NCBI GenBank assembly: GCA_019422005.1
Contig: JAHZEF010000002.1
Coordinates: forward strand, 1 to 40,866
Source: Clostridiales bacterium
GTDB lineage: Bacteria; Bacillota; Clostridia; Oscillospirales; Oscillospiraceae
DNA: 40,866 bases
Direction: 5' to 3'
A program made the position numbers and the translations under genes. This document shows positions 5,137-33,256 of this stretch, in pieces. Numbering within the stretch: position 1 is the stretch's first letter; each line of letters opens with the position of its first letter. The notes below the pieces were generated by a model that was not told the DNA's origin, searched no databases, and saw only the letters and a list, made by a program, of their open reading frames with translations.

Positions 5137-5210
5137 TGGAGCAGGGTACGGGAATCGAACCCGCCTTCTCGGCTTGGGAAGCCGATGCACTACCGATGTA
5201 CTAACCCTGC
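5137..5210 (-). tRNA. tRNA-Gly(CCC)
   Basis: GCAGGGT/ACCCTGC acceptor stem, anticodon arm TCGGC-TTCCCAA-GCCGA, T-loop GGTTCGATTCC, encoded CCA; 74 nt. Confidence 0.97.
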
Positions 5211-22532: not shown

Positions 22533-24065
22533 GTGCCTGCACCAACAGTAGAGATGAAACACATTACAAAGCGGTTTCCCGGCACACTTGCCAATAACAG
22601 TGTGGATTTTACGGCTTATCGAGGAGAAATACACGCACTGTTGGGCGAGAACGGAGCCGGGAAAAGCACGCTGATGAGCATTTTGACAGGGGTTCTGCGA
22701 CCGGATGAGGGAGAAATTCTCATCCGCGGCAAAAAAATGATCATGAGGGCGCCGAAAGATTCCCTCGCCTGCGGCGTCGGTATGATCTATCAGCATTTTA
22801 AACTGATCCGTCCCTTTACCGTCGCTGAGAATATTGTAATGGGCCTGGATACCGTTCGTGTGCTGCGCCGGCGGAAGATCGAGAAAAGCGTACAGGCAAT
22901 CGCCCAAAAGTATGACCTGGAAATTTCCCCCTCCAGCTATATTTGGCAGCTTTCAGTGGGGGAACAGCAGCGTGTTGAGATCATCAAGGTCTTATATCTG
23001 GGGGCAGATATTTTAATACTGGATGAGCCCACGGCAGTTCTGACGCCGCAGGAAGTAACCGCGCTGTTCCGAACGCTGCGGAAAATGGCGGACGACGGCT
23101 GTACCATCATATTTATCACACATAAAATGAGCGAAGTGATGGAGTACGCCGACCGTATCACCGTGCTCCGCGGCGGGGAAACGGTAGCCACCATGTCAAA
23201 GCAGGAGACCACGCCCCAGGAGCTGGCCCGGCAAATGGTGGGCCAGGAAGTCAGCACGGTACGGATCAATCAAAAGAACACCGTGAGCGACGTCGTGCTG
23301 AAAGTACGGGATCTGTGTGTAAGAAACGACAAGGGCCTGGAAGCGGTTGATCATTTAAGCTTCGATCTCCGGGCCGGTGAAATCCTCGGGATCGCCGGCG
23401 TCTCCGGCAATGGGCAGAAGGAATTGTGCGAAGCGTTGACCGGGCTGCGGAAAAAAGAAGCCGGAACCGTCACGCTGAGAGGCGGGCGGATCGAGAAATT
23501 TACCGCACGGCAGATCCTGGATGCCGGTGTATCGTTTATTCCGGAGGACCGTTACGGCACCGGCCTTATTGCAGAACTGTCCGTGCTGGAAAATGCCAGC
23601 ATCCGCTGTTATTACAAGCCGAAATTCTGCAGGCATAAGGTTTTAAACCGGAAAAAACTGTTGGAACAGGCCCGGCAGTTCATCGGCACCTTTCAGATCA
23701 AGGTCAACGGTCCGGAAGCCCTGGTAAAAAGCATGTCGGGAGGCAACGCCCAGAAGCTGATCCTCGCAAGGGAAACGGCAGAGGCCCCGGCCGTTATCAT
23801 TGCCGCCTACCCGGTCCGCGGCCTGGACATTCTTGCAACGGACTTCATCCACAGAACATTGGTTCAAGAAAAAAATAACGGCGCAGCAATCCTGCTGGTC
23901 TCCGAAGATCTGGACGAAATTTTTTCCTGCGCAGACCGGGTAGCAGTTCTGTATGAAGGCAATTTCACGGCGGAAATGCCGGTTGAACAAGCAGAGCGCG
24001 AAACGTTGGGTCTGGCAATGGCCGGCACAAAGATGGGAAGGTATGATTATGAAACCCAGAAATGA
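22533..24065 (+). CDS. ABC transporter ATP-binding protein (two-domain, CUT2/nucleoside type)
   Basis: GENGAGKST, LSVGEQQRVEI, LDEPT, GVSGNGQ, MSGGNAQK; GTG start after GGAGG. Confidence 0.93.
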   Translation: MPAPTVEMKHITKRFPGTLANNSVDFTAYRGEIHALLGENGAGKSTLMSILTGVLRPDEGEILIRGKKMIMRAPKDSLACGVGMIYQHFKLIRPFTVAENIVMGLDTVRVLRRRKIEKSVQAIAQKYDLEISPSSYIWQLSVGEQQRVEIIKVLYLGADILILDEPTAVLTPQEVTALFRTLRKMADDGCTIIFITHKMSEVMEYADRITVLRGGETVATMSKQETTPQELARQMVGQEVSTVRINQKNTVSDVVLKVRDLCVRNDKGLEAVDHLSFDLRAGEILGIAGVSGNGQKELCEALTGLRKKEAGTVTLRGGRIEKFTARQILDAGVSFIPEDRYGTGLIAELSVLENASIRCYYKPKFCRHKVLNRKKLLEQARQFIGTFQIKVNGPEALVKSMSGGNAQKLILARETAEAPAVIIAAYPVRGLDILATDFIHRTLVQEKNNGAAILLVSEDLDEIFSCADRVAVLYEGNFTAEMPVEQAERETLGLAMAGTKMGRYDYETQK

Positions 24066-25146
24066 GCTTCCGCGTTTGGTATTGGAGAAAAGGCTGTCGT
24101 GTCCCAAATGGCTGCGGATGGTCAATCCGGTGATTGCCGTAATCCTGGGATTGCTGTTTTCAGCCGTATTCATTCGCGCCAGCGGCGTAAGGCCGCTGGA
24201 AGTCTATGCGGCCATGTTTGAAGGCAGCTTCGGTTCCGTGTATGCACTCAGCGAAACCGGCGTGAAAATGATTCCGCTTCTCATGATTGCCGTCGGCTGC
24301 TGCATCTCCTTCCGTATGGGCCTGTGGAACGCCGGCGCCGAGGGGCAGATCTACATTGCAGGCGCTGTATCCACATGGGTCATTATCTCACTCCCGGCTT
24401 CCACACCGACTGCCGCCACTTTGCTGCTCGCATTTTTGGCCGCCTTCGTGTCGGCAGGTTTTTACGGGCTGATTGCAGGGATCCTGAAGCTGAAATGGGG
24501 CGTCAGCGAACTGATCGTCACATTGATGCTGAACTATATCGGAACACTGTTCATCAACTATCTGCTCCAGGGCCCCCTGAAAGATCCGGACACCTATACG
24601 CCGATGGTCTCAAAAATGTTTGCGTCCAACGGCCAGCTTCCCACATTGGGGAACACCCGGCTGCATTATGGATTATTCATCGCGCTGTTTCTGGCCTTGG
24701 GCTGCTGGTGGATTTTTCAGAAAACCACATGGGGATTTGAATCAAAACTGATCGGCAGTTCCCAGCAGGTGGCGCTCTATTCAGGGATCTCTGTAAACAA
24801 ATACATCATTGTGGGCATGTTCATCAGCGCGGGCATCTGCGGTATGGTGGGCGCCAACGAGGTCTGCGGCATCACGCACCGCTTGAGCACGCGGTTCGCC
24901 AATGATTTGGGATTCTCCGGCATGACGGTGGCCTATCTTGCCCAATTGAATCCTCTGGCATGCATTCTGGTCGCCTTCCTGTTCGGCGCACTGATGGTGG
25001 GCGGCAGTTCCATGCAGCGGATCGGCCTTCCGACCACAGGCGTCCAGATGCTTCAGGGCGCAATTTTGTTCTTTGTGGTCATGGGAGACGTACTGACAAA
25101 ATACCGGGTCGTGCTGAAGGGCAGCAGGAGGGCAAGCGATGTTTGA
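24043..25146 (+). CDS. ABC transporter permease
   Basis: Polytopic; WNAGAEGQ, SELIVTLMLNY motifs of nucleoside-type permeases. Confidence 0.9.
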   Translation: MIMKPRNELPRLVLEKRLSCPKWLRMVNPVIAVILGLLFSAVFIRASGVRPLEVYAAMFEGSFGSVYALSETGVKMIPLLMIAVGCCISFRMGLWNAGAEGQIYIAGAVSTWVIISLPASTPTAATLLLAFLAAFVSAGFYGLIAGILKLKWGVSELIVTLMLNYIGTLFINYLLQGPLKDPDTYTPMVSKMFASNGQLPTLGNTRLHYGLFIALFLALGCWWIFQKTTWGFESKLIGSSQQVALYSGISVNKYIIVGMFISAGICGMVGANEVCGITHRLSTRFANDLGFSGMTVAYLAQLNPLACILVAFLFGALMVGGSSMQRIGLPTTGVQMLQGAILFFVVMGDVLTKYRVVLKGSRRASDV

Positions 25147-26071
25147 GGCAATTTTATTGGGGGTTTTGACCTCTATGGTGGTGCAGGGCACGCCCCTGCT
25201 CCTGACCGCCATGGGTGAAATTGTAGACCAACGTGCCGGCACGCTGAATCTGGGATTGGAAGGCCTGATGCTGGTCGGAGCCATTTGCGGCTTTATCACC
25301 GCACAGAACACCGGGAATCTGGCGCTGGGTTTTCTGGCCGGTGGGGCCGCCGGCGCCGGTCTGGCGGTAATTCACGGTTTCCTTTCAATTTCTTTTCGTG
25401 TTCATCAGGCCATCTGCGGCCTGGCGCTCAACATGTTTGCCAGCGGGCTCAGCGGTTTTATCGGGCGAAACTACCTGGGACAGGCAATGAGCGTCTCCAT
25501 GGAAAACCATGCAATCCCGCTGCTCTCCAAAATTCCTTATATCGGCCCTGTATTTTTCAACACGGATTTCATGGTATATTTCACTTACCTCCTCGTTCCC
25601 GCCCTGATGTTCTTTCTCTTCAAAACACAGGCCGGTCTGCGGCTGCGCGCCTGCGGTGAAAACCCGACTGCGGCATATTCCCGTGGGATTCATGTGAACA
25701 GGATGCGGTATCTGGCAGTGATCTTCGGCGGCTTTATGGCCGGCCTGAGTGGCGCATACCTGGTCTTTAAAGCGGTTCCGACCTGGGTGGAGGGGCTGAC
25801 CGGAGGACGGGGATGGATTGCGCTGGCCGTCGTCACCGTCTCCATGTGGAAGCCGTCCACCGCAATGATTTATGCATTTTTATACGGCTGCGTGGAATCC
25901 CTTGCCTATCAGTTTCAGGGGATCGGCGTGGGCATTCCGGCGGTTATTTTAAAAATGCTTCCTTATGCGTTTACCATTCTGGCCATGTGGGTCGTCTCCA
26001 TCCGCAGTAAGCGGCACGGGATCGTAGGGCCGGCTGCCTGCGGCAGCGCTTTTACACCGGAGGAGGGATAA
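25139..26071 (+). CDS. ABC transporter permease
   Basis: GTLNLGLEG, GLRLRACGENP, GRGWIALA, MLPY. Confidence 0.92.
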   Translation: MFEAILLGVLTSMVVQGTPLLLTAMGEIVDQRAGTLNLGLEGLMLVGAICGFITAQNTGNLALGFLAGGAAGAGLAVIHGFLSISFRVHQAICGLALNMFASGLSGFIGRNYLGQAMSVSMENHAIPLLSKIPYIGPVFFNTDFMVYFTYLLVPALMFFLFKTQAGLRLRACGENPTAAYSRGIHVNRMRYLAVIFGGFMAGLSGAYLVFKAVPTWVEGLTGGRGWIALAVVTVSMWKPSTAMIYAFLYGCVESLAYQFQGIGVGIPAVILKMLPYAFTILAMWVVSIRSKRHGIVGPAACGSAFTPEEG

Positions 26072-26073
26072 AC

Positions 26074-26832
26074 GTGGCTCTGACCGTGACCGCATTAAAA
26101 ATGGGCGTTCTCCTGTTGGAAAAGGCATTCGACGGCATCCAAAAGCGAACGCCGATTCGTCAGCCCGTCTGGGCCGCCGCCATTTCCGGCGGGGAGCGAA
26201 AAATCCTTGTGGATACCGGGCTCCACGACAGCCAATGGATTTCCCAAAACTGTGTTCCATGCGAGATTGGGCCGGAGGAAACCATGGAAGCCTCGCTTGC
26301 CCGGATTGGCTGGCGCCTGGAAGATGTGGAGATTGTTGTCAATACGCATCTGCATTACGACCATGTGGGAAACAACCCGCGGTTTCCAGGCGCGCTGTTT
26401 TACACCGGATATCAGGAATGGGAAACGGCATTCCATCCCCCGGCCTCGCAGGCATTCCTCTATGAAAACACGCGCCAGCTTTATGACCAGCGCGGCGTCC
26501 GGCCGGACCACTGGATCCTCGTGAGCCAGGAGCTGGAATTGATTCCCGGCGTCCGGCTGCTTCCAACGCCGGGCCACACGGAGGGGCACTTGTCCGTTCT
26601 GGTGGAGACAGCGGAAGGCGTCGTTTGCATTGCAGGCGATGCGGTTATGTTTATGGAAAATCTGGAAGCAGGCTACGTCAATCTGCTGCACACCGACCGG
26701 GACGCCTGCCTGCGTTCCTACCATCTGATTCAAGCCCGCGCAGACCGGGTGTTCCCGGGCCATTCCGAACGAATCTTCCCGTTTCAAACCCGGGGGTTTC
26801 CATTGATTCCAAACCATAAAAAAGGCGGTTGA
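26074..26832 (+). CDS. Metallo-beta-lactamase-fold lactonase (AHL-lactonase family)
   Basis: LVDTG, THLHYDH, TPGHTEGH, AGDA, PGH. Confidence 0.88.
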   Translation: MALTVTALKMGVLLLEKAFDGIQKRTPIRQPVWAAAISGGERKILVDTGLHDSQWISQNCVPCEIGPEETMEASLARIGWRLEDVEIVVNTHLHYDHVGNNPRFPGALFYTGYQEWETAFHPPASQAFLYENTRQLYDQRGVRPDHWILVSQELELIPGVRLLPTPGHTEGHLSVLVETAEGVVCIAGDAVMFMENLEAGYVNLLHTDRDACLRSYHLIQARADRVFPGHSERIFPFQTRGFPLIPNHKKGG

Positions 26833-26838
26833 TATACC

Positions 26839-27258
26839 ATGGCATTTCAAATTACAAAAGCGCTGGCAGCTGCGTTTGCCTGTGACTGGTATAACGCTGT
26901 GGACAGTCATACACCCGTTCAGCTGTTGATGGAGCGGACGGTCGGATCAGAATTTCGGGTGCATTTTCCGGGAAGGGATCTGCGCTATGATGACTTTCTG
27001 GCCTGGTATGAAAATGATATCCACACCCATTTTGACGGACGGCACAGAATCCACTCCATGGAAATCGAGACAACCGGGGATCAGGCTGTTGTTCTGCTGC
27101 ATATCACCTGGAAGGCACGGCGCTGGACGCCGCCGGCAGCCTACAGTGAAGAAGTAACCTTGACGCCTGATGTGACAATGCATATAGAAGCATGCGGGGA
27201 GGAAAGCAAAATACTCCTGCGCTCTTATCATGTTGCAGACCGGGAGGCAGAGACATGA
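26839..27258 (+). CDS. SnoaL/NTF2-like protein
   Basis: 139 aa; WYNAVD..F..WY..H pattern and beta-rich C-terminus; in operon. Confidence 0.65.
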   Translation: MAFQITKALAAAFACDWYNAVDSHTPVQLLMERTVGSEFRVHFPGRDLRYDDFLAWYENDIHTHFDGRHRIHSMEIETTGDQAVVLLHITWKARRWTPPAAYSEEVTLTPDVTMHIEACGEESKILLRSYHVADREAET

Positions 27259-28394
27259 GACGATTTTACTTTCCGACCCAGCTGTTTTCCGGCGCCGGAT
27301 GCATACGCCAGCTGCCGCAGTTCCTTTCCGGCGGACTCCGCATCCTGATGGTCACAGACGAAAACCTTCTGCGCACTGAAGCTGCGGCCCGGATCCTGGC
27401 CCTCATAAAATCAGCCGGAGCGGCAGCCGTCATCTTCTCAGATGTTATGCCGAATCCGGAACTCTCCATGGTTTATCGGGCTGTAACCCTCTGCCGTTCC
27501 AATGAGATCGGGGCCGTTCTTTCCTTGGGAGGCGGCAGCGTGATGGATACAGGCAAGGCAGTTGCCATGCTGGCAGCCCAGCCTGACCCCATCGCGCGTT
27601 TCGCCGAATCGGGCCTGAAACCGGCCTGTCCCTCCATCCCCCATTATGCGGTTCCCACTACCTGCGGTACCGGCGCCGAAGCCTCCAGCGTAGCCGTAAT
27701 TTCTTACGGGAACACAAAGCGCGGCTTATGGGCGGATTCCCTTTTTCCAACGGCGGCCTTCGCAGATCCGGAGCTCCTCGCCTCCTTGCCGGAGCGTATT
27801 TTAACAGAGACGGCCATGGACGCCCTGAGCCATGCACTGGAATCTTTTATCGGAAAGGAACGGCAGGGCATTCTGCAGGCCCTGGGCCTGGAAGCAGCGC
27901 GGATGATCTTCCTCTCCCTGCAGGCAGCGCGGGCCGGGGATCCGGAAGCGCGGGCCAGCCTGTGCGAGGCTGCCTCCATGGCCGGTATCGCCATGGGGCA
28001 AAGCGGCACCGGCATGGTACATGCCATGAGCGACCAGCTGGGAGAACAATTTCATCTCTCTCACGGCGCAGGCATTGCGGTACTGCTGCCCCATTGTCTC
28101 CGATTCAATTTGCCCGCTGCGCAGGATCAGCTTGCCCGCTTTGCCGACGCCGTCGGAATTGCAAAATCGCAGCCGGAGGAAACCAGGGCTTCCGCAGCTG
28201 TGGACGCCCTGGAAGCGCTGTGCAGAAATTGCGGAATCCCTGCCAGGCTGCAGGATTGCGCCGCCAGCGACGAACAAATTTCCGCTATGGCACAGTCTGC
28301 CTGCAGCAGCTTCATCATCGAGAACAATCCGCGCCCGGTCACGCCGGCTGCTCTGAGTGAAATTTTCCGTGATCTGATACCAAAACAGATATGA
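27255..28394 (+). CDS. Iron-containing alcohol dehydrogenase
   Basis: GGGSVMD, PTTCGTGAE, DALSHALE, VHAM..SHG, NNPR. Confidence 0.92.
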   Translation: MRRFYFPTQLFSGAGCIRQLPQFLSGGLRILMVTDENLLRTEAAARILALIKSAGAAAVIFSDVMPNPELSMVYRAVTLCRSNEIGAVLSLGGGSVMDTGKAVAMLAAQPDPIARFAESGLKPACPSIPHYAVPTTCGTGAEASSVAVISYGNTKRGLWADSLFPTAAFADPELLASLPERILTETAMDALSHALESFIGKERQGILQALGLEAARMIFLSLQAARAGDPEARASLCEAASMAGIAMGQSGTGMVHAMSDQLGEQFHLSHGAGIAVLLPHCLRFNLPAAQDQLARFADAVGIAKSQPEETRASAAVDALEALCRNCGIPARLQDCAASDEQISAMAQSACSSFIIENNPRPVTPAALSEIFRDLIPKQI

Positions 28395-28409
28395 GAAAGG
28401 CACAAATAT

Positions 28410-28982
28410 ATGAAGGAACTGCAAGCCATTGTCGGCGTCTCCAATCGCCACGTCCATCTTTCAGCGGCAGACAGAGATATTCTATTCGGAAAAAACGCCC
28501 CCTTGGAATTCAGGAAACCGCTGCGGCAGCCCGGGCAATACGCTGCAGAGCAGGTGGTAACTCTGGCTGGTCCAAAAGGGCGGATCGACCGCGTGCGGGT
28601 CTTATGCCCATTGCGTACACAAAGCCAGGTGGAACTTTCCCGAACAGACACCTTTACACTGGGTATTGAACCATGCTTCCGCCAATCCGGCGATCTGAGC
28701 GGCAGTCCGGGGATCTGTATAATCGGCCCCAAGGGATGCGTCCAACTGTCAGAAGGCGCCATTGTCGCTTTGCGGCACCTTCATCTGGATCCGCTGACCG
28801 CAGAGGAATACGGGCTGAACGATCAGCAAATGGTCTCTGCACGTACAGACGGCGCAAGGGCCGTCATATTTGAAAAAATACTGGTTCGGGTATCGGAACT
28901 CTTTGTCCCCGAGTTTCACGTGGATACGGATGAAGCCAACGGGGCAGATCTTGTTACGGGGGATCAGGTCCATATTTTCTGA
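28410..28982 (+). CDS. pduL: Phosphate propanoyltransferase (PduL-type phosphotransacylase)
   Basis: VSNRHVHLS, QPGQYA, R.SGDL.GSPG, RHLHL, HVDTDEAN. Confidence 0.92.
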   Translation: MKELQAIVGVSNRHVHLSAADRDILFGKNAPLEFRKPLRQPGQYAAEQVVTLAGPKGRIDRVRVLCPLRTQSQVELSRTDTFTLGIEPCFRQSGDLSGSPGICIIGPKGCVQLSEGAIVALRHLHLDPLTAEEYGLNDQQMVSARTDGARAVIFEKILVRVSELFVPEFHVDTDEANGADLVTGDQVHIF

Positions 28983-29146: not shown

Positions 29147-30022
29147 CTATGAAAGATCCGCCACGGTCTGGCTGGCGCACTGGATCAGATCCTGTACGGC
29201 GGGCTTCAGTTCCTTCTTGCTGCGGACGATCATCCCCAGCTCCCGGTGCGCCCGGGGTTCGATGGGAAGCGTCAGCACCGTTTTCGGGCGCCCCTCCATA
29301 ATAAGCGCCGTCATAATGCTGACGCCCAGGCCATGGGCGACCATGGAAATCACCACGGGGTCGTCCACCGTGGTTTTCCGGATGCGCGGATGGACGCGGT
29401 GCCGCTTGAACATGGGCATGATATCGCGGGTAAATCCCAGCGCCGGCATCAGGAATTCCCGACCTTCAAATGCGCTGACCGGAAAGGACTCCCAGTCGCC
29501 GTACCGGTCGTCCGGCGGCAGGATCGCCACCAAAATATCCTCCTTGAGCGGATAAAACTCCGCCTTCAGATCGTCCTGCCGGCTGACAAACGCCAGGTCG
29601 ACCTCCCCGGTCCGCACCCAGCCGTACAATTCCTCGATTCCGCCCATCTGCACATCCACGCGAACGTCGGGGCAGACCGCACGGAACTGCTGCAGGATCG
29701 CCGGCAGCCAGTGCAGCGCCATGCTGGAATAGGCGCCCACGCGGATCCACTGGCTTTCCTGCCGGCGGATGGATTCCGCCTCCGCCTCCAGCGCCTGCCC
29801 GGCCTCCAGGAAGCGGCGGATGGCCGGCTCCAGCTGCGCGCCTCGCCGGGTAAGCCGCGTGCCGTAATGCCCCCGCTCCAGCAGCGGAAAGCCGATCTCC
29901 TGCTCCAGCGCGTTCATCATATGGGTCAGGCCGGACTGGGTATAGCCCAGCTCCTGCGCCGACTTGGTGAAGGAACCCAGCCGCGCCGAGGTCAGCAGGG
30001 CCTCCAGTTTCTTTGTATCCAT
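29147..30022 (-). CDS. LysR family regulator
   Basis: GSFTKSAQELGYTQSGLTHMMNALEQEIG HTH; 291 aa. Confidence 0.95.
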   Translation of the reverse strand: MDTKKLEALLTSARLGSFTKSAQELGYTQSGLTHMMNALEQEIGFPLLERGHYGTRLTRRGAQLEPAIRRFLEAGQALEAEAESIRRQESQWIRVGAYSSMALHWLPAILQQFRAVCPDVRVDVQMGGIEELYGWVRTGEVDLAFVSRQDDLKAEFYPLKEDILVAILPPDDRYGDWESFPVSAFEGREFLMPALGFTRDIMPMFKRHRVHPRIRKTTVDDPVVISMVAHGLGVSIMTALIMEGRPKTVLTLPIEPRAHRELGMIVRSKKELKPAVQDLIQCASQTVADLS

Positions 30023-30114: not shown

Positions 30115-31131
30115 TCAGACGCTGCGGCCCATGCAGGCGGCAATGGGCTGCAGACGGCGCATCAGATCGTCAAACGCAGCGGGAGTAATGGACTGCGGCC
30201 CGTCGCACAGGGCGTTTTCAGGGTCATTGTGGACCTCAATGATCAGCCCGTCGGCGCCGGCGGCGATGGCCGCCATGGCCATACGCTCCACCATCCAGGC
30301 CTGGCCGCAGGCGTGGCTGGGATCCACAACCACCGGGAGATGGCTCAGCTTTTTCACCGCCAGAACCGCCGACAAATCCAGCGTGTTGCGGGTATAGGTC
30401 TCGAAGGTGCGGATCCCGCGTTCACAGAGAATCACGCGGCTGTTGCCGCCGGCCATGATGTATTCGGCCGACATCAGCCATTCCTCGATGGTGGAGGACA
30501 TTCCGCGCTTGAGCAGGATCGGCTTTGTCGTCCTTCCCATATGCTTGAGCAGGTCAAAGTTCTGCATGTTCCGGGCGCCGACCTGAATCACATCCACATG
30601 CTCCTCAAACAGCTCCAGATCCTCTGTGGACATGATTTCTGAAACAATGGGAAGGCCGGTCTGGCTGCGGGCCTCCTCCAGCAGGCGGATTCCGTCGGTC
30701 CCCATGCCCTGGAACGAATAGGGGGACGTCCTGGGTTTGAACGCGCCGCCGCGCAGCGCGCAGGCGCCGGCCCGGCGGACCCGCTCCGCTATGTCCACAA
30801 TCTGCTCCCGGCCCTCCACAGAGCAGGGCCCTGCAAACACTGCCAGCCGGTTTCCGCCGACGCTCCGGCCGCCCGGCAGTTCGATGACCGTATCATCCGG
30901 ATGGTACTTGCGGTTTGCCATTTTGAACGGCTCCGACACCCGCATTACGCGCTCTACGCCGGGGAGAAGGGAGAGCCGGTTTTGGTCAATGCCGGCCGCA
31001 TTGCCCTCCGCGCCCAAAATTGTGGTCTCCGAGCCTTTGGAGATCATAACCCGGACGCCGCCCTCCTCCATGACGCGGACGGCCGCCTGCATCTGCTCCG
31101 GCGTATAATTGGATTTCATAACAACAATCAT
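30115..31131 (-). CDS. aroF: DAHP synthase, class I-beta, with N-terminal regulatory domain
   Basis: AGPCSVE, GGAFKPRTSPYSFQG, GARNMQNF, CERGIRTF, DPSH, EVH..ALCDG. Confidence 0.95.
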   Translation of the reverse strand: MIVVMKSNYTPEQMQAAVRVMEEGGVRVMISKGSETTILGAEGNAAGIDQNRLSLLPGVERVMRVSEPFKMANRKYHPDDTVIELPGGRSVGGNRLAVFAGPCSVEGREQIVDIAERVRRAGACALRGGAFKPRTSPYSFQGMGTDGIRLLEEARSQTGLPIVSEIMSTEDLELFEEHVDVIQVGARNMQNFDLLKHMGRTTKPILLKRGMSSTIEEWLMSAEYIMAGGNSRVILCERGIRTFETYTRNTLDLSAVLAVKKLSHLPVVVDPSHACGQAWMVERMAMAAIAAGADGLIIEVHNDPENALCDGPQSITPAAFDDLMRRLQPIAACMGRSV

Positions 31132-31160
31132 GCTGCAGCACTCCTTTCAGATTTGAAATT

Positions 31161-31191
31161 AAAAAACGCGGCAGCCCTTCGGCTGCCGCGT
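31161..31191 (-). terminator. Attenuator terminator in the aroF leader
   Basis: ACGCGGCAGCC-gaag-GGCTGCCGCGT-TTTTT, 30 nt upstream of the aroF start. Confidence 0.9.
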
Positions 31192-31221
31192 GTATACGCT
31201 GGGACACAACACGGTCGGCGT

Positions 31222-31293
31222 CTATGGGCACGGCAAAGCGCTTCTGCAGCTGCAGAAGTACCAATCGCCATCATAGATTGCCCGTCTGTCCAT
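31222..31293 (-). CDS. Putative leader peptide MDRRAIYDGDWYFCSCRSALPCP (23 aa)
   Basis: GAGGA RBS, ATG at 31293, TGG-TAC-TTC codons, TAG at 31224-31222; lies between the promoter and the leader terminator. Confidence 0.8.
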   Translation of the reverse strand: MDRRAIYDGDWYFCSCRSALPCP

Positions 31294-31334
31294 ATCCCAA
31301 TTCCTCTTTCATGAATTGCATCGTTTATGTGTTA

Positions 31335-31363
31335 AAGATATCACAGGCACACCGGGTTGTCAA
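31335..31363 (-). promoter_or_regulatory. aroF leader promoter
   Basis: TTGACA-17bp-TATCTT with TG extension. Confidence 0.8.
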
Positions 31364-31458: not shown

Positions 31459-31487
31459 TTGCAAAAAGCCTATCGGTATGATATGAT
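31459..31487 (+). promoter_or_regulatory. Promoter of DUF2156/GNAT genes
   Basis: TTGCAA-17bp-TATGAT with TG extension. Confidence 0.65.
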
Positions 31488-31523
31488 ATTCAAAAATATG
31501 GAACGCTGCAAAGGAGAATGATT

Positions 31524-32438
31524 TTGAGTATTGAATTCCGACATCCCACTCTCGAAGACCGGGGATGGATCACTGAGCTGTATCATAAAACCGGCTGCCG
31601 CGGCAGCGAATGCAGCTTTGTGAACCTGTATCTCTGGGGGCGCGGTTATGGCCAGATCGCCAGGGTGGGCGATTACATGGTCCAGTTCATCAAGTATAAC
31701 GGCGTAAAATATTACGCGTACCCCGCCGGATCCGGCGACCTGCGCAGCGTCATTGACCAGCTGATCGAGGACGCCCGGGCCTACGGTCATCCCATGCGCC
31801 TGCTCGGAATCACCTGCGACCGGAAGTCCGAACTGGAGGCGCTGTATCCGGGGCAGTTCCGATTTGAGGAAAACAGGGCTTCCTTTGATTACCTGTACGA
31901 CGTCAACCGGCTGGCGGATCTGGGCGGGAAAAAGCTGCAGTCCAAGCGGAACCACTGCAACCGCTTTGAGCAGAACCATCCGGACTGGTCCACGGAACCG
32001 GTAACAGCCGCCAATCTGGGCCTGTGCCGCGCCATGGCGGAGGAATGGTTTGCACAATACAACGGGGAGACCTCGGAAGAGCATGACTTCCGGATCGAAA
32101 AAATCGCGCTGGGGCGCGCATTTGACGACTTCGAAGCCCTGGGGCTGGAGGGGCTGCTGCTGAAGGCCGAAGGCCGCGTTGTGGCGTTCACCATGGGCAA
32201 CCAAATCCAGCGGGACACCTTTGACGTCAACTTTGAAAAAGCGTTCGCCGAAATACAGGGCGCATATCCGGTCATCAACCGGGAATTTGCGCGGCACATC
32301 CGCGCCAGGTACCCGGAGATCGTCTATCTGAACCGGGAGGACGACATGGGGCTGCCCGGCCTGCGGCGGGCCAAGGAATCCTATCATCCGGATATCCTGC
32401 TCTGCAAGGCCTCGGCCGTTCTGGAGGCGTCGCTGTGA
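31524..32438 (+). CDS. DUF2156 / soluble phosphatidylglycerol-lysyltransferase-like domain protein
   Basis: SFVNLYLW, DYLY..L..L.GKKLQSKRNHCNRF, FEKA..GAY..IN, NREDDMGLPGLRRAKESYHP. TTG 31524 fits the RBS better than ATG 31518. Confidence 0.85.
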   Translation: MSIEFRHPTLEDRGWITELYHKTGCRGSECSFVNLYLWGRGYGQIARVGDYMVQFIKYNGVKYYAYPAGSGDLRSVIDQLIEDARAYGHPMRLLGITCDRKSELEALYPGQFRFEENRASFDYLYDVNRLADLGGKKLQSKRNHCNRFEQNHPDWSTEPVTAANLGLCRAMAEEWFAQYNGETSEEHDFRIEKIALGRAFDDFEALGLEGLLLKAEGRVVAFTMGNQIQRDTFDVNFEKAFAEIQGAYPVINREFARHIRARYPEIVYLNREDDMGLPGLRRAKESYHPDILLCKASAVLEASL

Positions 32439-33256
32439 GCATTCAAACCGGAACCTCGCTGAACACCGACATCCCGGCGCTCCGGCAGCTTTGGAAGCAG
32501 GCCTTCGGCGATGAGGACGCGTGTATCGACGCCTTTTTCAATACGGCCTATACGCCGGAACGCGTGTTGGTCCTGCGGGAGGACGGGCAGGTGCGGGCCA
32601 TGGCCTGCTGGCTGCCCATGACAGTCTGCCAGGCGTCCAGAGGCTGGCCGGCCGGGTATTTATACGCCGTTTCCACCGAGGCTTCCGCCCGCGGACGCGG
32701 TTTCTGCCGGCAGCTGCTGGCCTTTGCAGAAGAATTTCTGGCGGCCCGTAGGATCAAGGTATTGCTGCTGGTGCCCGGCGAGCCGTCTCTCCGGCAATTT
32801 TACCGGCGCTGCGGCTATGCGGATTTCACCACTGTGGATATGGAGGAGCTGCGCGTCACTGCGGCGCAGGGCCAGGCAGAACCCATTGCCGCTCCGGAAT
32901 ACCTGGAGCTGCGGGAACAGCTCCTGTCCGACCGGCCCTACGTATCCTGTCCGGTGCCTGTGCTGGAATTTCAGGACGCGCTGGCGCGGCTGTACGGCGG
33001 CGGCCTGGTCCGCCTGTCCGGCAGCGGCGCAGAGGGCTGCGCATGCGTTGCCAGAGACGCCGGCGGCCGGGCCGTCGTGTATGAGCTGCTCTGGCCCGGA
33101 GACCGCGCCGAGGGCGCATCGCTGGCGGCAGGCCTGGTGGGCGCGGAGCGCGCGCTGGTGCGGGCGCCGGGCAGCGCCGCGCCGTTCGCCATGGCAAACT
33201 GGCTGATAAAACAGCCCGAATGCCGGCCGCCCTATCTGGGCCTCGCCCTGGACTGA
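32435..33256 (+). CDS. GNAT family N-acetyltransferase
   Basis: LWKQAFGD, YLYAVST..ARGRG, LVPGEPSLRQFYRRCGY; GTGA coupling to upstream gene. Confidence 0.88.
   Translation: MSIQTGTSLNTDIPALRQLWKQAFGDEDACIDAFFNTAYTPERVLVLREDGQVRAMACWLPMTVCQASRGWPAGYLYAVSTEASARGRGFCRQLLAFAEEFLAARRIKVLLLVPGEPSLRQFYRRCGYADFTTVDMEELRVTAAQGQAEPIAAPEYLELREQLLSDRPYVSCPVPVLEFQDALARLYGGGLVRLSGSGAEGCACVARDAGGRAVVYELLWPGDRAEGASLAAGLVGAERALVRAPGSAAPFAMANWLIKQPECRPPYLGLALD

Follow-up and report, generated by a model that had tools for sequence, protein, structure and literature searches.

A Probable Leader-Peptide Attenuator Family Upstream of aroF in Clostridia and Their Relatives, with a Probably Eroded Tyrosine-Type Member

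Organization of the aroF Locus

The DNA analyzed here (the window) is a stretch of 40,866 nt from a Clostridiales bacterium. Its minus strand carries an aroF gene whose product, a DAHP synthase of type I-beta, has a ferredoxin-like (ACT) regulatory domain at its N terminus (TIGR01361, PF00793, PF18152); named relatives of the protein at 70–77% identity come mostly from Oscillospiraceae. The features of the locus are as follows.

31335..31363, minus strand: sigma-70-type promoter TTGACA-17-TATCTT with an extended TG, matching the consensus at 10 of 12 positions
31302..31307, minus strand: Shine-Dalgarno (SD)-like site AGAGGA of the leader uORF; in aligned leaders the SD region at this position is rich in purines
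31222..31293, minus strand: leader uORF of 23 codons, MDRRAIYDGDWYFCSCRSALPCP, ending in Cys-Pro-stop like most of the clade
31275-31273 (Tyr7), 31263-31261 (Trp11), followed by Tyr12 and Phe13 (to 31255), minus strand: aromatic codons of the uORF
31223..31275, minus strand: 1:2 leader hairpin with the sensing codons on its 5' strand; outer helix 31275-31268 with 31230-31223, inner helix 31258-31253 with 31246-31241
31173..31230, minus strand: putative antiterminator, from constrained folds and helix covariation
31161..31191, minus strand: intrinsic terminator of 11 pairs (9 G-C) with a GAAG loop, covarying stem at 31191-31166, U-tract to 31161
31141..31146, minus strand: SD site of aroF
30115..31131, minus strand: aroF, ATG at 31131

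An initial annotation, made from the letters alone, had proposed here a promoter, ribosome-binding site, 23-codon uORF, terminator and aroF ribosome-binding site, and each was found at the minus-strand position claimed for it. The Trp, Tyr and Phe codons that it had pointed out in the uORF are also present, but it had overlooked a fourth aromatic codon, Tyr7. Taken alone, the uORF is modestly unusual: a filter for aromatic-rich peptides (at least 4 aromatic codons in 12) passes 9 of the 133 placed uORFs of the same genome, two of the nine being those of its two aroF genes. As far as sequence comparison goes, the decisive support for it is conservation at aroF loci rather than its own composition. 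Public RNA libraries, sampled as contigs from five runs at shares of only 0.06–0.16, four of which were aligned, yielded a single, identical 224-nt contig over 31392-31169 (depth 2.5), which ends within the terminator. Because this contig begins upstream of the promoter and may be DNA, it is no evidence of expression.

The window aroF is an orphan copy within a clade whose usual arrangement is aroF-tyrA. The genome encodes all three aromatic branches (trp, tyrA, pheA and aroA/B/C/K genes); its tyrA lies on a separate contig behind a short leader of its own, and a contig end falls inside trpE of the trp operon. The leader of a second aroF (L037, region G000:C214:10126-10285) is rich in Phe (6 Phe, 1 Tyr) and comes with a terminator; this aroF, too, is detached from the aroB-aroA-aroC-pheA-aroK block (contig C227).

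Among the neighbors of the window aroF, a LysR-family gene (29147-30022, minus strand) follows it with its own consensus promoter TTGCAC-17-TATAAT at about 30085-30055, an arrangement that recurs only in L003. A promoter-like site at 31459-31487 accompanies a divergent gene pair on the plus strand (31518-33256), whose products are a PF09924 (lysyltransferase C-terminal-like) protein and a GNAT acetyltransferase. The product of 28410-28982 (plus strand) we take to be a PduL-like protein; judging by their translations, the genes before it (24000-28400, plus strand) encode a nucleoside-type ABC transporter, a metallo-beta-lactamase-fold protein and an iron-type alcohol dehydrogenase. The sole Rfam match of the window is one tRNA gene at 5140-5210 (minus strand).

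T-box and TRAP

Aromatic amino acid synthesis in Firmicutes is usually described as controlled by T-boxes or TRAP. Consistent with the initial annotation, which saw no T-box motif, Rfam at the gathering score gave no match at the leader, and at E <= 1 the only match over it was an opposite-strand SurA hit of 19 bits against a cut-off of 100. The scan at E <= 1 did recover a genuine T-box at another aroF locus (L013). The window genome has 12 T-box matches, none of them on the contig of the window. Covariance model and motif searches at the locus thus found no T-box (RF00230) that would explain the terminator. A TRAP-controlled attenuator likewise found no support: a search for TRAP (mtrB, PF02081) gave no match in the window genome, which is 89% complete, and did match the Bacillus subtilis control. 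Across 192 aroF loci, a T-box motif takes the place of the leader peptide in four (L013, L079, L095 and L097), with Rfam confirming L013.

A Leader Family across aroF Loci

The distribution of the element was analyzed in 204 aroF loci, 192 of which were distinct and had enough upstream DNA. A terminator was detected in 171 of these, and 158 have an SD-led uORF placed ahead of it. Aromatic-rich uORFs account for 145 of the 158, compared with the 9 of 133 genome-wide; this comparison is the non-circular test of enrichment, because the figures for leader composition given below come from a set selected for aromatic content. That set comprises 143 leaders, after removal of 8 duplicates and of two false-positive leaders (L047 and L068). 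Family members were found in Oscillospirales, Clostridium, Megasphaera, one Synergistaceae genome and others, and their peptide sequences vary widely between clades. For Tyr and for Phe, both codons are in use (TAT 303, TAC 183, TTT 506, TTC 140), and all three of Trp, Tyr and Phe are held by 59 of the 143 leaders. A Trp-rich short ORF before an ECF-type S component in the window genome (L222:492-557, G000:C9) proved to be a false positive lying inside the upstream gene.

To examine the reading frame, 35 of 40 leaders from the clade of the window aroF were aligned (alignment A1), leaving out L051, L131, L142, L144 and L196, whose ends are longer or divergent. In all 35, the distance between the first Tyr codon and the Cys codon at the end is divisible by three, whereas the noncoding spacer after the stop codon is spread over the three frames (11/10/14). 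A coding span that keeps frame beside a spacer that varies freely points to selection on translation. In addition, both the 1:2 hairpin and the terminator covary in this clade (see below). Family conservation and covariation, together with the searches in which neither T-box nor TRAP was found, support the central proposal of the initial annotation, a leader-peptide transcription attenuator on a Firmicute DAHP synthase. The window element is a member of a widespread and apparently unnamed family of probable aroF attenuators.

Tyrosine Codons and Linkage to tyrA

The aroF protein of the window falls into a clade of 54 proteins with a FastTree support of 1.0, in a tree that excludes the partial L039 protein. 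In 73 of 88 distinct loci of this clade (10 duplicates removed), tyrA follows aroF, which accounts for the Tyr codons of its leaders. Of 67 clade leaders, 50 have at least five Tyr codons, mostly five or six, and two leaders, the window among them, have exactly two. Tyr makes up 20.6% of codons in the clade leaders against a background of about 3.2%, a contrast that is partly circular since leaders had been preselected for aromatic content. Outside the clade, the Tyr fraction is 0.44 before aroF-tyrA (n = 31) and 0.26 otherwise (n = 67), with few independent contrasts.

The two aroF copies of a genome differ in the same sense. Both paralogues were fetched in 42 two-copy genomes, and both leaders are present in 27; in 27 of these 27 the leader of the window clade is the more Tyr-biased one. 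Mean numbers of Tyr/Phe/Trp codons are 5.2/1.7/0.2 in this clade and 1.2/5.3/0.8 in the other copy, whereas 29 leaders from 30 single-copy genomes (loci picked by hand, mostly leader-bearing) are mixed, with means of 2.9/4.7/0.6. The 27 contrasts are not independent: on the tree, the Tyr state arose once, and the Phe-rich partners belong to two clades.

The type of leader also tracks the enzyme. Residues 29 and 31 of the regulatory domain (window 31047-31039), which we take to be its ligand-selecting positions, are M/S in this clade, G/T in the common partner and H/S in Thermotoga maritima, and the Tyr fraction of the leader follows these types (0.78, 0.24 and 0.43, respectively). No paper confirming a role for these residues was found in the literature. 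The G/T partner clade has a Phe-rich leader with a single conserved Trp codon in 33 of 40 cases (L157-L193). Leaders of Clostridium (L052-L067) were also observed to retain one Trp within a Phe/Tyr run.

A second conserved feature lies over the promoter. A similar promoter motif is found upstream in 47 of 53 clade loci, leaderless orthologues included, and a 26-bp palindrome, ACTTTARC-N10-GYTAAAGT, overlaps its -35 and -10 boxes (e.g., L224:1501-1526). It is present in 44 of 46 clade loci from outside the genus of the window, in none of the 6 loci of that genus and in 3 of 137 other aroF loci. Leaders have been lost repeatedly in the clade (L002, L005, L007, L009, L132, L143, L200 and L201), the promoter then standing close to the start of aroF. 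Several leaderless loci keep the palindrome, and control by a repressor alone may suffice there.

The same palindrome was observed in five relatives (L223-L237) before a TrpX-like ABC binding protein, iorA and threonine ammonia-lyase, as well as before a pair of genes for a sodium symporter and an acyl-CoA ligase; looser matches precede hisZ and another binding protein. From their gene content, these sites look like an unnamed aromatic regulon. The palindrome resembles two overlapping HisR-type sites, according to the consensus in the available text of PMC9413887. Its regulator was looked for and was not found; a second HisR/TrpR-family paralogue precedes iorA in only two of the five. In the window genome the single palindrome site (G000:C167:11715-11740) stands directly ahead of a T-box, which would amount to double control.

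RNA Structure and Proposed Mechanism

The initial annotation had described three helices in the leader, and all three are present in its minimum free energy fold. The 197-nt leader is unusually stable (z = -3.90; none of 200 shuffles as stable), and its 1:2 hairpin folds with -27.2 kcal/mol (z = -2.36). Across the clade, 84.5% of cells in the 1:2 hairpin are paired, with 26 two-sided changes, a result equaled by 0 of 500 shuffles; the stem of the terminator covaries as well.

Two alternative pairings had been suggested for the antiterminator. Both can form in constrained folds, but the helix between UGCCGUG and CGCGGCA is not conserved: 65.7% of its cells are paired compared with 66.4% in shuffles, and 411 of 500 shuffles match it. 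Specific capture of the 5' arm of the terminator was considered too and rejected for this clade, in which a leader's own arm exceeds the shuffle mean in 20 of 40 cases and the best of 10 shuffles in 3 of 40; across all 143 leaders the signal is weak (106 and 35, respectively). In the window, 37–69 of 200 shuffled arms are equally good.

The constrained folds suggest a different helix. In these, the Cys-Pro-stop segment (GCCC, 31230-31224) pairs with the loop and the inner 3' arm of the terminator (31178-31173), and inside this pairing the post-stop segment forms an inner helix with the 5' arm of the terminator. In the textbook 2:3 geometry, the antiterminator captures only the 5' arm. Paired cells of the Cys-Pro-stop helix reach 79.0%, with 7 two-sided cells (0 of 500 shuffles), although the helix was chosen by inspecting the same sequences on which it was scored. 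Its two-sided changes fall on only 3 pairs (59 of 500 shuffles), a slide by +1 still gives 57.6% paired and 6 two-sided cells, and its core in the window has just 4 pairs. The pairing of Cys-Pro-stop with the 3' arm is thus a candidate antiterminator, better supported by these comparisons than UGCCGUG:CGCGGCA.

Based on these structures, the following mechanism may be proposed. RNA polymerase would start near 31328, and a ribosome would load on the uORF. In the 1:2 hairpin the Cys-Pro-stop segment is the 3' strand, and it also overlaps the stop codon, so it should be hidden without a ribosome, covered when translation finishes and free when a ribosome stalls upstream. Without a ribosome, the 1:2 hairpin would hold the 3' end of the uORF, the terminator would form and transcription would stop; a ribosome at the stop codon would cover the segment, with the same outcome. 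A ribosome stalled at about codons 6–16 would instead cover strand 1 and free the Cys-Pro-stop and post-stop segments, which could then pair across the 5' arm, loop and inner 3' arm of the terminator and allow read-through into aroF. Ancestrally, in an aroF-tyrA operon with five or six Tyr codons, the stall signal would be uncharged tRNA-Tyr. In the orphan copy of the window, Tyr7, Tyr12 and Phe13 remain and Trp11 would be incidental; the response is expected to be weak and mainly to shortage of Tyr or Phe, the element otherwise damping expression.

Energetics agree with this scheme in part. With a ribosome footprint assumed to extend 12 nt past the A-site, the gap between the terminated and the best nonterminated fold of the window is 15.2 kcal/mol without a ribosome, 6.8–9.7 kcal/mol for stalls at the aromatic codons and 17.2 kcal/mol at the stop codon. 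The gap is smaller on the aromatic run in 38 of 40 clade leaders relative to no ribosome and in 40 of 40 relative to the stop codon (85 and 95, respectively, of 103 leaders in other clades); the advantage over the stop codon follows in part trivially from the longer free segment. In the window, stalls at those of codons 8–16 that encode Asp, Gly, Ser or Cys give similar gaps (8.5–10.1), hence the geometry fails to single out Trp-Tyr-Phe. Moreover, at equilibrium the terminator wins in every ribosome state (P >= 0.93), so switching must be kinetic. The anatomy of the locus, the kept frame, the covariation of hairpin and terminator, and the Tyr bias and tyrA linkage of the clade are shown by the sequences; we infer that the uORF is translated, that ribosomes stall on it and allow read-through, how the antiterminator competes kinetically and which amino acid the window copy senses.

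One could suppose instead that the conserved hairpin is the target of an RNA-binding protein or of an arrest peptide that depends on a ligand, and that the aromatic codons are a by-product of RNA constraint, since RNA pairing explains the Cys-Pro end and the Tyr-Arg-Tyr/Cys features and equilibrium folding by itself does not switch; but this is very improbable given that both Tyr and both Phe codons are in use across leaders, that the composition of a leader varies with the gene downstream and with the paralogue, that the peptides differ widely between clades and that there is no TRAP match.

Probable Erosion of the Window Leader

All six copies of this aroF clade in the genus of the window lack both a downstream tyrA and the palindrome. 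In two of the six, including the closest orthologue (88% identity), the leader is deleted and the promoter kept. Three of the four remaining leaders have 2–4 Tyr codons and one has 6; Trp occurs in two of the four, at differing places. With regard to closer relatives, the genus provided 9 other genomes, and a scan of metagenomes gave none above 79% identity. The window copy is very probably an eroded Tyr-type leader that descends from a working attenuator. Given the erosion and loss across the genus, it may have ceased to regulate.

If so, the element would be a decaying relic, a homologue of attenuators with no useful response to amino acids, acting as a leaky terminator, fixed in its effect, that keeps down the expression of a spare DAHP synthase. 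The window leader is in the lowest Tyr-count class of its clade, the tyrA link and palindrome are gone from 6 of 6 genus copies and the leader itself from 2 of 6, and the Phe-rich leader of the second aroF in the same genome is intact, all of which would suit such a relic. On the other hand, SD site, start, frame, Cys-Pro-stop end and a strong 1:2 hairpin have been retained despite divergence of the codons, and the stall-dependent gap of the window (6.8–7.3) is near the clade median of 6.05. We regard such a relic as rather unlikely. The reading that we favor, and consider probably correct, is that of an eroded Tyr-type, ribosome-dependent transcription attenuator which remains a weak sensor of Tyr and Phe.

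The initial annotation had gone further in proposing that adjacent Trp, Tyr and Phe codons, one for each end product, form an OR gate on the first enzyme of the pathway. One way to accommodate this is that, after loss of tyrA, the enzyme took on the role of a general DAHP synthase and selection remodeled its leader to hold one adjacent codon of each kind. Trp11, Tyr12 and Phe13 do lie within the stall window, Tyr12 and Phe13 giving the smallest gaps, and the genome makes all three amino acids. The codons themselves are not conserved, however. The column of the window Trp is Tyr in 26 of 34 orthologues and Trp in none, and the column of its Phe is Arg in 26 of 34; the exact register may be off by one codon, but under either alignment a conserved Tyr has disappeared. 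Trp amounts to 1.3% of clade leader codons (background about 0.9%), and an adjacent trio of Trp, Tyr and Phe occurs in 3 of 67 clade leaders. A gain of Trp after loss of tyrA was considered on the basis of an early count of 5 of 7 leaders without tyrA against 7 of 33 with it, but with more loci the excess became 5 of 11 against 13 of 56 and was not significant (Fisher's exact test, P = 0.15). Trp in only two of four genus leaders, at different places, and the like gaps from stalls at neighboring codons also argue against selection for a gate, as does aroR of Corynebacterium glutamicum, whose single Tyr is reported, in the available text of PMC11802643, to give no response to Tyr.

Thus, a selected gate with one codon of each kind did not hold up for the window, where we consider it quite improbable, and its own Trp-Tyr-Phe run is probably a by-product of leader decay. 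With 59 of 143 leaders holding all three residues and Trp conserved in 33 of 40 leaders of the G29/T31 partner clade, the idea of three-residue sensing fits other branches of the family better than this locus. Leaders of the partner clade and of Clostridium would, by their codon content, be more promising than the window as places to look for true sensing of three residues.

Comparison with Known Systems

Most sampled aroF loci of clostridia and their relatives carry an unannotated, probable leader-peptide attenuator. The split between Tyr-type and Phe-type paralogues and the link to tyrA offer testable predictions for the control of aromatic flux in clostridia of the gut and anaerobic habitats, and the family is a natural series for changes of attenuator specificity and for decay. 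The value of the window copy is as an entry point to this family. A search of full-text literature, covering open-licence papers, found nothing on the clostridial leaders as a family, on their Tyr-type form or on the split between paralogues.

Leader peptides before DAHP synthase genes nevertheless have precedents, contrary to what the initial annotation implied. In C. glutamicum, the published aroR leader contains Phe-Tyr-Phe before aroF, and ribosome stalling raises expression (PMC11802643, PMC7356990); in the available text of these papers, the response is to Phe and not Tyr in the former and is described as translational control by Phe and Tyr in the latter. Compared by description only, aroR and the window element are alike in having adjacent aromatic codons in a leader peptide ahead of DAHP synthase, but aroR is actinobacterial, whereas the clade of the window is dominated by Tyr and tied to tyrA. 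The second precedent is the predicted motif uORFC-13-1 (Brewer et al. 2021, PMC8632094), which according to the available text comprises 24 Phe-centered sequences from Acholeplasma and environmental DNA. As in the present family, uORF, promoter, ribosome-binding site and terminator lie exclusively upstream of aroF, and control of termination by ribosome speed was proposed; the comparison is again by description, and the available text describes no Clostridia, Tyr-type form or paralogue split.

In few aroF loci (4 of 192 by motif), a T-box (RF00230) stands as regulator where the others have the leader; the window locus has none. Leader-peptide attenuators for His have been predicted in some Firmicutes, according to the available text of PMC9413887 and PMC4833913. 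Like trpL, pheL and hisL, the window element has a uORF with cognate codons, a 1:2 hairpin and an intrinsic terminator, and it would resemble them in its putative antiterminator and three-state logic. The window element differs from them in having no Rfam match and in an antiterminator that, as modeled, reaches over the loop into the 3' arm of the terminator.

With respect to tyrA, attenuation of aroF-tyrA by sensing of tRNA-Tyr has been proposed for Escherichia coli, Shewanella and Vibrio (PMC2659441, PMC1173090), and putative attenuators have been noted at aroA(I-beta)-tyrA loci of Thermus and Thermoanaerobacter (PMC1173090), in each case as given in the available text. The gammaproteobacterial systems resemble the clade of the window in placing DAHP synthase and tyrA under a putative Tyr signal, but their enzyme is of type I-alpha, and the available text offers predictions or an old hypothesis and describes no leader peptide. 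A broader scenario would be that clostridia like the Oscillospiraceae rebuilt in RNA the isozyme control of DAHP synthase known from E. coli: leaders of duplicated aroF genes would have been recoded for Tyr (aroF-tyrA) or Phe, the stop-codon segment would serve as antiterminator strand, few codon changes would retune the switch when the operon changes, and the window copy would be a working switch that also answers Trp and Phe. Taken as a whole, we think this scenario unlikely.
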